Part shown: positions 14,329-15,356 of the stretch, in pieces
Position numbering within the stretch: position 1 is the first letter of the stretch
Layout: each line of letters begins with the position of its first letter
Assembly: GCA_046293555.1 (NCBI GenBank)
Contig: JBKBOT010000001.1
Location: 87,753-110,151 of the forward strand
Length of the DNA: 22,399 nucleotides
Source: Pyrobaculum sp.
GTDB lineage: Archaea; Thermoproteota; Thermoprotei; Thermoproteales; Thermoproteaceae
Direction: 5' to 3'
The notes under the pieces: generated by a model
What the model saw: the letters and a program-made list of their open reading frames with translations, nothing else
Told to the model about the DNA's origin: nothing
The model's database searches: none
Made by a program: the position numbers and the translations under genes

Positions 14329-14610
14329 TTAACCCCATCTACATCTCCCCTCTATACATCTACATCTCACGCCATATCTCTCCGCGTTGTAACATTCTTT
14401 CCACTCGCATGTGGTGATTACTGGGTCTTCGTATGTACTTCTACAGACCTGTCCACTACAGCCGTCTACCACACAATCTAGGTCTGTGACACACTTCCCG
14501 CCGGTAGACCACCCACAGAACTCTGTACCCCCGTCGGGCTGTGGGTTTTTCATCGTTATTACCATAAATATTACAAATATCAACACTGCTAGTATGGCTA
14601 TTTGATACAT
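14329..14610 (-). CDS. Secreted or membrane-anchored eight-cysteine-cluster domain protein (93 aa)
   Basis: N-terminal hydrophobic helix followed by FCGWST.G.C..D.DC...GCSGQVC......TTCEWKECY.....C.C..G.C.W. The ATG's A is the tRNA-Trp discriminator base. Confidence 0.82.
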   Translation of the reverse strand: MYQIAILAVLIFVIFMVITMKNPQPDGGTEFCGWSTGGKCVTDLDCVVDGCSGQVCRSTYEDPVITTCEWKECYNAERYGVRCRCIEGRCRWG

Positions 14611-14703
14611 GGGGCCGGAGGGATTTGAACCCCCGCCTTCCGTTTGGCGAGGCCAATCTACGGGTCTGGAGCCCGCCGCTCTGCCTGGCTGAGCTACGGC
14701 CCC
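14610..14703 (-). tRNA. tRNA-Trp(CCA) with a 20-nt intron at 45/46 (14638-14657); CCA not encoded
   Basis: GGGGCCG/CGGCCCC acceptor stem and GCGGG-CT-CCA-GA-CCCGT anticodon arm. Intron ATTGGCCTCGCCAAACGGAA forms a strict BHB (CCGU/ACGG central helix, UUGGC/GCCAA intron stem). Confidence 0.94.
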
Positions 14704-14726
14704 CATATCCTTCTTCTCCCCCCTTT

Positions 14727-15356
14727 TTAAATTTTTATTATAACCCTGGCGTCTGCCACATAGGCGCCTTTCTCCAAGACAAAAACTGGGTTTAGGTCGG
14801 CCTGTAGTACCCCCCTCTCTACTGCCAGTTGGGAGAATTTAGTCAATATGTCCACAACAGCCGCCACGTCGCGTGGCGGCATGCCTCTATATCCCGAGAG
14901 TATGTGGAAGGCTTTTGTCTCTCTGACCATATCCCACGCGTCTCGTCTCTCTATGGGGGCTATGCGTATAGACATGTCTCTATATAACTCTGTATATATC
15001 CCACCTAGCCCGAAGAGTATTACGTGTCCAAATATCTCGTCGTAAGTCGCGCCGACCATTACCTCCACGCCCCCCGAGGCCATCTTCTGTATCAAGACGC
15101 CGTCGCCAATTTTGCTCAGCCTTCTGTATGCCTCTCTCACCTCTCTTGGGTTGTTGAGATTAAGCAAGACGCCTCCCACTTCTGTCTTGTGGAGTATCTT
15201 TGTGGAAACTATCTTGGCCACCACTGGGTATCCAATCTGCTCTGCGGCACTTACAGCCTCCACCTCGTCGTTTACAATCCTGTATTCTAGCACCGAGATG
15301 TGGTAAGACTCAAGGAGGGCAAATGCCACGTCTTCTCTTAACTTCTCAACCCCCAT
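14727..15356 (-). CDS. ADP-forming acetate/acyl-CoA ligase, beta subunit (ATP-grasp)
   Basis: Motifs GYPVVAKI.S..ILHKTEVGGV, EVMVG...D..FG.VI.FGLGGIYTEL.RD and DLNPV...ADAR. Confidence 0.9.
   Translation of the reverse strand: MGVEKLREDVAFALLESYHISVLEYRIVNDEVEAVSAAEQIGYPVVAKIVSTKILHKTEVGGVLLNLNNPREVREAYRRLSKIGDGVLIQKMASGGVEVMVGATYDEIFGHVILFGLGGIYTELYRDMSIRIAPIERRDAWDMVRETKAFHILSGYRGMPPRDVAAVVDILTKFSQLAVERGVLQADLNPVFVLEKGAYVADARVIIKI

Follow-up and report, generated by a model that had tools for sequence, protein, structure and literature searches.

A tRNA-Trp gene of Pyrobaculum sp. that shares its discriminator base with the start codon of an eight-cysteine protein: a candidate tRNA-mRNA co-transcript

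The DNA considered here, called the window below, is a stretch of 22,399 nucleotides from the hot-spring archaeon Pyrobaculum sp. (contig JBKBOT010000001.1, positions 87,753 to 110,151, of assembly GCA_046293555.1). The source assembly, denoted G000, consists of 145 contigs, has a total size of 1.75 Mb and contains 52% G+C. On the minus strand of the window, an intron-containing tRNA-Trp gene runs directly into the coding sequence of an eight-cysteine protein, and the discriminator base of the tRNA (A73) is at the same time the A of the ATG start codon of that protein. A second, in-frame ATG abuts the 5' end of the tRNA. The features of this locus are listed in Table 1; positions are those of the window, and a start codon is named by the position of its first base.

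The tRNA-Trp gene and the reading frame across it

The tRNA-Trp(CCA) gene was found by ARAGORN, from which its borders were taken, and by the Rfam model RF00005, which was matched over its whole length (model positions 1-71 of 71) with 60.1 bits against a gathering score of 29. The gene has a cloverleaf match, the anticodon CCA, a 7-bp acceptor stem and A73. The element at 14703-14610 is the only credible tRNA-Trp found in the assembly, and a search of G000 for a further close copy returned none. A second ARAGORN Trp(cca) call, at G000:C16:19646-19738, was rejected as a miscall, since in sequence it corresponds to a tRNA whose anticodon is CTT and which contains a non-canonical intron; it serves as a caution for automatic tRNA counts in this clade.

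The intron borders are consistent with the intronless tRNA-Trp genes of five relatives (G001, G002, G005, G007 and G025). At these borders, the RNA folds into a 4-bp helix (CCGU/ACGG) with two 3-nt bulges, AGA and, after the helix, AAG. By this fold and by the comparison with the intronless relatives, the 20-nt insertion is predicted to be a bulge-helix-bulge intron. The minimum-free-energy fold of the whole precursor was found to be no more stable than those of shuffled sequences (z of -1.2) and to lack the cloverleaf, and only the intron hairpin was used from it.

Table 1. Features of the tRNA-Trp locus in the window.
Feature	Position	Strand	Basis
tRNA promoter: A-run (BRE-like, 14736-14732) and TATA box TTTAAAAA (14731-14724)	14724..14736	-	
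ATG abutting tRNA base 1; 3-nt or 1-nt pre-tRNA leader, or leaderless 5'-terminal start codon	14706-14704	-	
tRNA-Trp exon 1	14703-14658	-	Comparison with intronless relatives
tRNA-Trp intron, 20 nt, at variable-loop position 45/46	14657-14638	-	Comparison with intronless relatives
tRNA-Trp exon 2; A73 is 14610, no encoded CCA	14637-14610	-	ARAGORN, RF00005
Coding sequence of the 93-residue eight-cysteine-cluster protein; stop codon 14331-14329	14329..14610	-	TIGR04289
Remnant of the ancestral coding-sequence promoter; aligns to the G017 TATA box with a 3-nt gap within	14599..14609	-	Pairwise alignment
N-terminal hydrophobic segment IAILAVLIFVIFMVIT, residues 4-19; signal peptide or membrane anchor	14554..14601	-	Kyte-Doolittle
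AT-rich stretch in the hydrophobic-segment codons; promoter-like for ATG14553 or ATG14565, giving a possible 74-78-residue form without signal peptide	14564..14581	-	Promoter scores
Eight-cysteine-cluster domain, residues 39-92	14335..14496	-	TIGR04289, profile positions 1-52 of 52

Base 1 of the tRNA, at 14703, begins the sequence GGGGCCG... immediately after the upstream ATG. From this ATG, an open reading frame (ORF; 14706..14329) of 125 residues extends through the tRNA, which accounts for about 31-32 of its codons. The ATG at 14610-14608 lies in the same frame and begins an ORF of 93 residues. The only Trp codon of the tRNA-spanning part, TGG at 14655-14653, lies inside the intron, whose length of 20 nt is not divisible by 3. 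The abutting ATG, the 31 stop-free codons across the intron-containing tRNA, the double role of A73 as the A of an in-frame ATG, and the lone Trp codon in an intron whose removal shifts the frame had all been reported in the original prediction from the DNA alone, and each was confirmed.

How unusual is this junction? Among the 43 tRNAs called by ARAGORN in this genome, an ATG at -3..-1 was observed in two, a frame that stays stop-free from -3 through the tRNA in 11, and A73 followed by TG in two. The chance that one tRNA combines all of these features is roughly a few in a thousand, which is unusual, but the combination was noticed post hoc. The other tRNA with an ATG at -3..-1 is tRNA-Glu(UUC) (G000:C1:19288-19380, minus strand), in which all three frames through the tRNA contain stops. 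A pattern scan of 29 family genomes returned 31 tRNA ends with A73 and TG, and among the 30 that were read only the present locus begins a coding sequence with a family match. Three other ORFs at such ends (70-104 residues) were judged spurious, having no Pfam hit. A search of 5.8 billion proteins with the 125-residue reading gave 10 hits among 15 candidates and no other such fusion; the sole hit with a tRNA-derived N-terminus was a gene call (P0012) on the same DNA in another assembly. Gene callers list the 93-residue form; for the 125-residue form there is a record as well, taken from that second assembly. A literature search, which excluded supplementary files and is not proof of absence, found no description of a start codon overlapping a tRNA discriminator in Archaea. 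The available portions of PMC3848588, PMC3388794 and PMC3579882 contained nothing useful on tRNA leaders or tRNA-mRNA processing.

Promoters at the junction

A promoter position matrix was self-trained on 1378 long ORFs, with the start of each chosen iteratively. The trained matrix shows a leaderless pattern: a TATA box at -27..-20, an A-rich B recognition element (BRE) at -32..-29 and a pyrimidine at -1. Random genomic positions score -5.6 on average, with a 99th percentile of 5.7 and a 99.9th percentile of 9.6. The tRNA promoter was found to score 12.84 for a start at G14704 and 11.27 for one at A14706; both values exceed the 99.9th percentile for random positions. The TATA box was confirmed to begin 25 nt before A14706, as originally described. 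Before 306 unambiguous start codons of the genome, the hexamers TTTAAA and TTTATA begin at -27 in 13 cases and at -26 and -25 in 11 cases each; the spacing therefore suits transcription starts at A14706 (-25) and G14704 (-27) about equally. For the 43 called tRNAs, the inferred start precedes tRNA base 1 by 1 nt in 17, by 2 nt in 10, by 0 nt in seven and by 3 nt in six.

No comparable site precedes the coding sequence at its discriminator ATG. The promoter score at ATG14610 is -10.1, the 18th percentile of random positions, and no best start among 865 ORFs of at least 250 residues is as low (median 5.7). When the start-codon columns are included, the full start-site score of ATG14610 is -7.1, under all 1377 gene starts. 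A BRE and TATA box at -32..-20, the mark of a leaderless start with its own promoter, are present ahead of ATG14706, absent ahead of ATG14610 and weak ahead of ATG14553. Between 14702 and 14611, the promoter score nowhere rises above its 95th percentile, and no run of four or more T occurs on the minus strand from 14720 to 14200, so that the tRNA and the coding sequence are separated by neither a promoter-like site nor a T-run; the predicted lack of a T-tract after the tRNA was thus upheld. Further downstream, the in-frame codons GTG14586, TTG14583 and ATG14565 score -6.6, -2.8 and 1.9, respectively, and ATG14553 scores 4.2, the 97.7th percentile of random positions, with neighbouring positions 14556 and 14551 at 7.7 and 9.7. 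The earlier statement that the coding sequence has no TATA box of its own accordingly holds for ATG14610, and promoter-like scores do occur for ATG14553.

At least eight other tRNAs of G000 have, 27-38 nt past their end, a start on the same strand with a promoter score of at least 4. In this compact layout, seen on contigs C1, C2, C6, C8, C9, C14 and C38, a TATA box abuts the tRNA 3' end and a leaderless start comes next.

The eight-cysteine protein and its N-terminus

The 93-residue product matches the eight-cysteine-cluster family TIGR04289 with 66.2 bits against a cut-off of 50. It contains the eight Cys and a hydrophobic N-terminus, and the earlier reading of the ORF as an 8-Cys protein was borne out in this way. 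No Pfam hit was obtained with a local copy of that database, and no relative was found in the PDB.

A second strain is represented by DNA contigs from another study (run X2), which cover 14329-14694 and 14670-14850. Of the other runs compared, X1 probably derives from the source of the window itself and does not count as independent, and X3 and X4 gave no match. The X2 strain differs from the window at 36 of 366 positions on one piece (27 substitutions and 9 gap letters) and at 11 of 181 on the other, with no difference listed between 14602 and 14710, and both ATGs are kept. The N-terminal region shows two net 3-nt indels, one Ile>Val substitution and one synonymous change, and the linker contains one further 3-nt insertion, all three indels being net multiples of 3. 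In the X2 protein, rebuilt by coordinate from the difference table and matched by a database fragment (P0011), the frame is open, the N-terminal segment is still hydrophobic and all eight Cys are kept. Over 63 indel-free domain codons, the ratio of nonsynonymous to synonymous divergence (pN/pS) between the two strains is 0.16, at a pS of 0.24. Judged by this comparison, the coding sequence is functional and under purifying selection. The conservation of both ATGs in X2 proves little by itself, because at a pS of 0.24 three neutral bases remain unchanged about 44% of the time.

These data bear on the view that the coding sequence is a silent relic which lost its promoter and start by deletions and stands beside the tRNA without function. 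An ancestral TATA box and start codon have indeed been lost relative to the closest relative (G017, discussed below), and the gene family is patchy, occurring in 7 of 29 genomes. A relic would nevertheless not be expected to show the low pN/pS accumulated since the split from X2, which shares the fused layout, or an intact ORF with eight Cys in both strains and indels that all spare the frame, and this view is considered very improbable.

Does the hydrophobic segment belong to the protein? In the 19 in-frame codons before ATG14553, the maximum 15-residue Kyte-Doolittle mean was found to be 3.59. As controls, 888 gene starts with a good promoter were examined; the upstream frame was stop-free in 307, and none had a mean above 2.53. 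A metagenome scan with the protein gave 33 homologous loci, the best 71% identical, and a hydrophobic segment precedes the domain in 32 of them, the exception being cut by the edge of the locus. None of the 33 loci has a tRNA-Trp upstream according to ARAGORN. In a pairwise alignment, the segment also aligns in frame with the signal peptide of the G017 protein. By these comparisons, the N-terminal hydrophobic segment is taken to be coding and not translated promoter DNA.

This evidence has to be set against an independent promoter, located in 14581-14564, that would give a leaderless mRNA starting at ATG14553 or ATG14565 and a cytoplasmic protein of 74-78 residues, leaving the hydrophobic segment and the discriminator ATG untranslated. 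The promoter score at ATG14553, with still higher values at the positions next to it, ranks at the 40th percentile when compared with the best starts of real genes, and the full start-site score of 8.9 lies at the 37.5th percentile of the 1377 gene starts. The same ATG scores 7.65 in X2. The orthologues of G015 and G016 clearly start at the Cys domain, with promoters of 8.8 and 10.3, and where other tRNAs of this genome are paired with a gene, applying the same rule selects the promoter-bearing start. However, the hydrophobicity of the upstream codons exceeds that of every promoter-region control, X2 preserves the frame there through two net 3-nt indels and conservative substitutions, and a signal or anchor segment is the rule among the distant homologues and in G017. 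AT-rich hydrophobic codons can also score as promoter-like by chance, as shown by a value of 7.56 inside the signal-peptide codons of G017. Overall, an independent promoter is regarded as unlikely.

Because the hydrophobic segment appears to be real coding sequence of a functional gene, translation should begin at or upstream of 14601, where the only in-frame ATG, GTG or TTG codons are ATG14610 and ATG14706. This also bears on a further possibility, in which the trailer released by RNase Z, with its 5' end at U14609, is itself the mRNA. Translation would then start at GTG14586, TTG14583 or ATG14565 after a leader of 23-45 nt, the hydrophobic N-terminus would be shortened, and tRNA maturation and mRNA production would be coupled instead of competing. 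The in-frame codons GTG14586 and TTG14583 exist, X2 has additional in-frame GTG codons in this N-terminal region, and RNase Z is described as freeing C/D box small RNAs (sRNAs) from tRNA co-transcripts in the available part of PMC4247193. No Shine-Dalgarno-like motif was seen by eye before GTG14586 or TTG14583, although 63% of the putative internal starts of this genome lack one as well. A start at GTG14586 or TTG14583 would keep only 10-11 hydrophobic residues, and the conserved open hydrophobic codons 4-8 upstream of it would be left unexplained. A trailer mRNA is accordingly thought quite unlikely.

Relatives and the origin of the junction

All 29 family genomes matched the query DNA, mostly through its tRNA part. 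The 5' flank of tRNA-Trp was readable in 13 relatives (G017, G006, G011, G004, G001, G005, G002, G007, G025, G003, G018, G015 and G008), and none has an ATG at -3..-1. The 3' flank was readable in 15 relatives; position 73 is A in all of them, an ATG at the discriminator occurs in none, and the tRNA is followed by an encoded CCA in 14 and by TTT in G017. A Trp-like locus of G026 (L024) was left out of all counts, since ARAGORN assigned it a 4-base anticodon and it reads as another tRNA. The alignment of tRNA-Trp loci proposed with the original prediction thus contradicted a conservation of both ATGs across the family, and the 5' ATG appears, on these loci, to be lineage-specific and confined to one shallow lineage. 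The intron is variable in the genus: it is absent or has 16, 17 or 20 nt at position 45/46, and introns in the T loop, one in the D arm and seemingly split genes occur among the relatives as well.

The eight-cysteine gene occurs with a tRNA-Trp upstream in G000, G017, G015 and G016, with spacers of 0, ~31-40, ~110 and ~330 nt, respectively. An own promoter-like site lies at a sensible start in five of six orthologues, with scores of 4.9 (G017), 3.9/4.9 (G014), 10.3 (G016), 8.8 (G015) and 8.4 (G003). The sixth orthologue (L037, G028:C110) has no signal peptide and begins immediately behind the stop of a DsbA-like gene that encodes a CPFC motif; its position next to the DsbA-like gene hints at a link to disulfide chemistry.

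In G017, the closest relative, the tRNA-Trp gene has a 20-nt intron and is immediately followed by a TATA box, with a GTG start ~25 nt further on that has a promoter score of 4.88 (98.5th percentile). The recurrence of a compact tRNA, TATA box and leaderless start in at least eight tRNAs of G000 implies that the G017 layout is the norm and the fused layout the exception. Relative to G017, the old start codon falls in a 26-nt gap, and ATT at the discriminator has become ATG (T>G). G017 retains the ancestral layout, with a tRNA, a TATA box and a leaderless start ~31 nt on. In the lineage of the window and X2, small deletions, of 3 nt and 26 nt by the alignment, removed the TATA box and the old start codon, and the T>G change turned A73-U-G into a new start codon. 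To judge from G017, the 20-nt intron, the open frame and its phase predate the fusion, and hence were not shaped for coding.

This last point weighs on the proposal at the centre of the original prediction, namely, that pre-tRNA-Trp is a leaderless mRNA starting at A14706. Ribosomes would read the unspliced tRNA as 32 codons to give the 125-residue protein, whose cytoplasmic N-terminal extension would be followed by a membrane anchor. RNase P, RNase Z and splicing would each destroy the message, so that protein output would compete with tRNA maturation, perhaps in a Trp-sensitive manner. In an extended form of this proposal, ribosomes would capture the RNA before the tRNA folds, and their kinetic race with RNase P, RNase Z and the splicing endonuclease would decide whether a primary transcript becomes essential tRNA or serves to make membrane-anchored protein. 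ATG14706 has a full start-site score of 16.6 (90.9th percentile of the 1377 gene starts), the TATA spacing of -25 is about as common as -27, and an open frame in the right phase leads from this ATG into the coding sequence. An ATG leader is rare enough that its coincidence with a promoterless coding sequence would be expected at 2-5%. AUG14610 lacks a Shine-Dalgarno motif, the extension would add three Arg ahead of a hydrophobic core whose N-terminal side is otherwise devoid of positive charge, and both ATGs are kept in X2. On the other side, no relative with a readable flank has either ATG, and G017 already possesses the 20-nt intron together with the open, in-phase frame although its coding sequence stands apart from the tRNA. 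The matrix prefers G14704, which leaves the AUG out of the RNA, and the resulting 1-nt leader is the commonest class of tRNA leader. The ATG leader of tRNA-Glu(UUC) is followed by in-frame stops, conservation in X2 is uninformative at this divergence, and the 5.8-billion-protein search returned no other such fusion among its 10 hits. Trp sensitivity was left without support: the 32 codons contain one TGG, inside an intron that is absent or different in relatives, and neither the clustered Trp codons nor the T-tract terminator of an attenuator (an amino-acid-sensing leader) was found, a single Trp codon being no attenuator signature. A leaderless pre-tRNA message, including the kinetic race that it entails, is therefore viewed as rather improbable.

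A putative tRNA-mRNA co-transcript

We favour the reading, with a probability of roughly 45%, that the tRNA and the eight-cysteine coding sequence are expressed as an obligate co-transcript driven by the tRNA promoter, and that cutting by RNase Z and the use of AUG14610 are mutually exclusive. The coding sequence is intact and selected, yet no promoter serves 14610, and from this we infer expression from the tRNA promoter. Translation would start at AUG14610 on molecules uncut by RNase Z. Cleavage after A73 would take away the A of AUG14610, so that mature tRNA and an mRNA with an intact start would be alternative products of each precursor. The ATG in the 5' leader would most likely have arisen as a side effect of a leader of 1-3 nt. 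G000 encodes an RNase Z homologue (C15:275-1057), with 222 bits, below the curated cut-off of 293. The interpretation first offered for this locus therefore survives in part: transcription from the tRNA promoter and the conflict between RNase Z and AUG14610 are supported, indirectly, by a selected gene without a promoter, whereas the tRNA-spanning frame as a designed coding region is not.

Several observations weigh against such a co-transcript. The promoter matrix was trained on ORF calls made in this analysis instead of mapped transcription starts. No Shine-Dalgarno-like 4-mer lies upstream of AUG14610, and the 12-15 nt upstream of it belong to the acceptor and T stems of a highly stable tRNA. 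Promoter-like scores were observed at the downstream ATG14553 in both strains. A signal peptide starting at AUG14610 has no Lys or Arg ahead of its hydrophobic core, unlike those of the homologues, and the orthologues of G015 and G016 begin directly at the Cys domain, without a signal peptide. With regard to initiation, a Shine-Dalgarno-like motif was found at 37% of 235 putative operon-internal starts, compared with 17% of 782 strong-promoter starts; its lack at AUG14610 is weak evidence, since only 37% of internal starts have one.

If the co-transcript is real, an essential single-copy tRNA and a protein gene would share a promoter and one nucleotide, and on each RNA molecule tRNA 3' maturation and translation initiation would exclude each other. 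The comparison with G017 indicates a route to such an overlap in a compact archaeal genome, where the normal layout needs only ~30 nt: two small deletions and one point change may suffice to shift a gene from its own promoter to that of a tRNA. The locus also offers a defined substrate for studying initiation in Thermoproteales at an internal AUG without a Shine-Dalgarno motif, initiation on pre-tRNA 5' ends, and the handling by RNase Z of a trailer that is an mRNA. As the arrangement appears restricted to one lineage, it is for now probably a curiosity and does not establish a general principle.

Relation to known systems

In mitochondria, tRNAs abut mRNAs in one transcript and punctuate it, the cuts of RNase P and RNase Z defining the mRNA ends, and where mitochondrial tRNA genes overlap, the shared bases make the two products mutually exclusive. 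Mitochondrial punctuation is genome-wide and repairs truncated ends, whereas the present arrangement concerns a single locus in a genome where tRNAs and their neighbours otherwise have their own promoters. In attenuation of the trp-operon type, the translation of a short frame upstream serves to sense how much of one amino acid is available. The Pyrobaculum locus, unlike trp attenuation, has no tandem Trp codons, no alternative terminator and antiterminator, and no downstream biosynthetic operon.

Two further cases come from Archaea. In T. kodakarensis, tRNA-Lys TKt03 lies in the 159-nt 5' untranslated region of TK0306, and their co-transcription has been mapped (PMC4247193). In both systems, a tRNA and a downstream protein gene would share one promoter and one primary transcript, and the tRNA must be excised from the leader. 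A spacer separates the tRNA from the start codon in TKt03/TK0306, whereas in Pyrobaculum the spacer is -1 nt and excision would remove the start codon; co-transcription, mapped for TKt03/TK0306, is only inferred for the tRNA-Trp locus. In Pyrobaculum itself, some mRNAs have their start codons within C/D box sRNAs with which they are co-transcribed, and sR44 shares a transcript with tRNA-Met; the spacing between these two varies with the species, being 8 nt, 100 nt or 13 kb (PMC6009581). These sRNA cases resemble the present one in genus, in having a structured non-coding RNA and an mRNA on one promoter, and in the position of the start codon within the non-coding RNA. Spacing and promoters have been gained and lost between species for sR44, as described there, and likewise at the tRNA-Trp locus (0, ~31, ~110 and ~330 nt). 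At the tRNA-Trp locus, in contrast to these cases with guide sRNAs, an essential, single-copy tRNA is joined to the coding sequence, and the two overlap by a single base, where the 3' end of the tRNA is processed.

Neighbouring genes and other tRNA-Trp loci

The upstream neighbour of the tRNA is an ATP-grasp gene of the ADP-forming acyl-CoA synthetase type, and its stop codon (14729-14727) sits within the tRNA TATA box. The downstream neighbour is a TauE/SafE gene. Its longest ORF begins at ATG14338 and overlaps the end of the eight-cysteine ORF (14329-14338); the Pfam match and a TATA-like site favour ATG14245 as its start (promoter score 0.9, 90.7th percentile).

Further tRNA-Trp loci of the relatives show other arrangements. 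In G008 (L022/L102, C1 ~1555290-1556310, minus strand), the tRNA looks split: the 5' half closes with a trailer and, after it, T6. The 3' half comes ~950 nt further downstream along this strand, with a BRE/TATA-like promoter of its own, and its leader is complementary to the trailer of the 5' half. In G016 (L034/L029, C46, ~locus 1100-1240), only the 3' part of tRNA-Trp is seen, with its own promoter-like site ahead, and a search of this assembly, which is 98% complete, for a 16-mer of the 5' exon was negative. G015 (L035) has a 20-nt intron at the same position as the window, and ~75 nt lie between a TATA-like site and the tRNA 5' end. Finally, in G006 (L076) and G005 (L090), a tRNA whose acceptor stem is GCGGCGG has C-box and D-box motifs 8 nt behind it, an arrangement that matches the Pyrobaculum tRNA-Met/sR44 co-transcript as described in the available part of PMC6009581.

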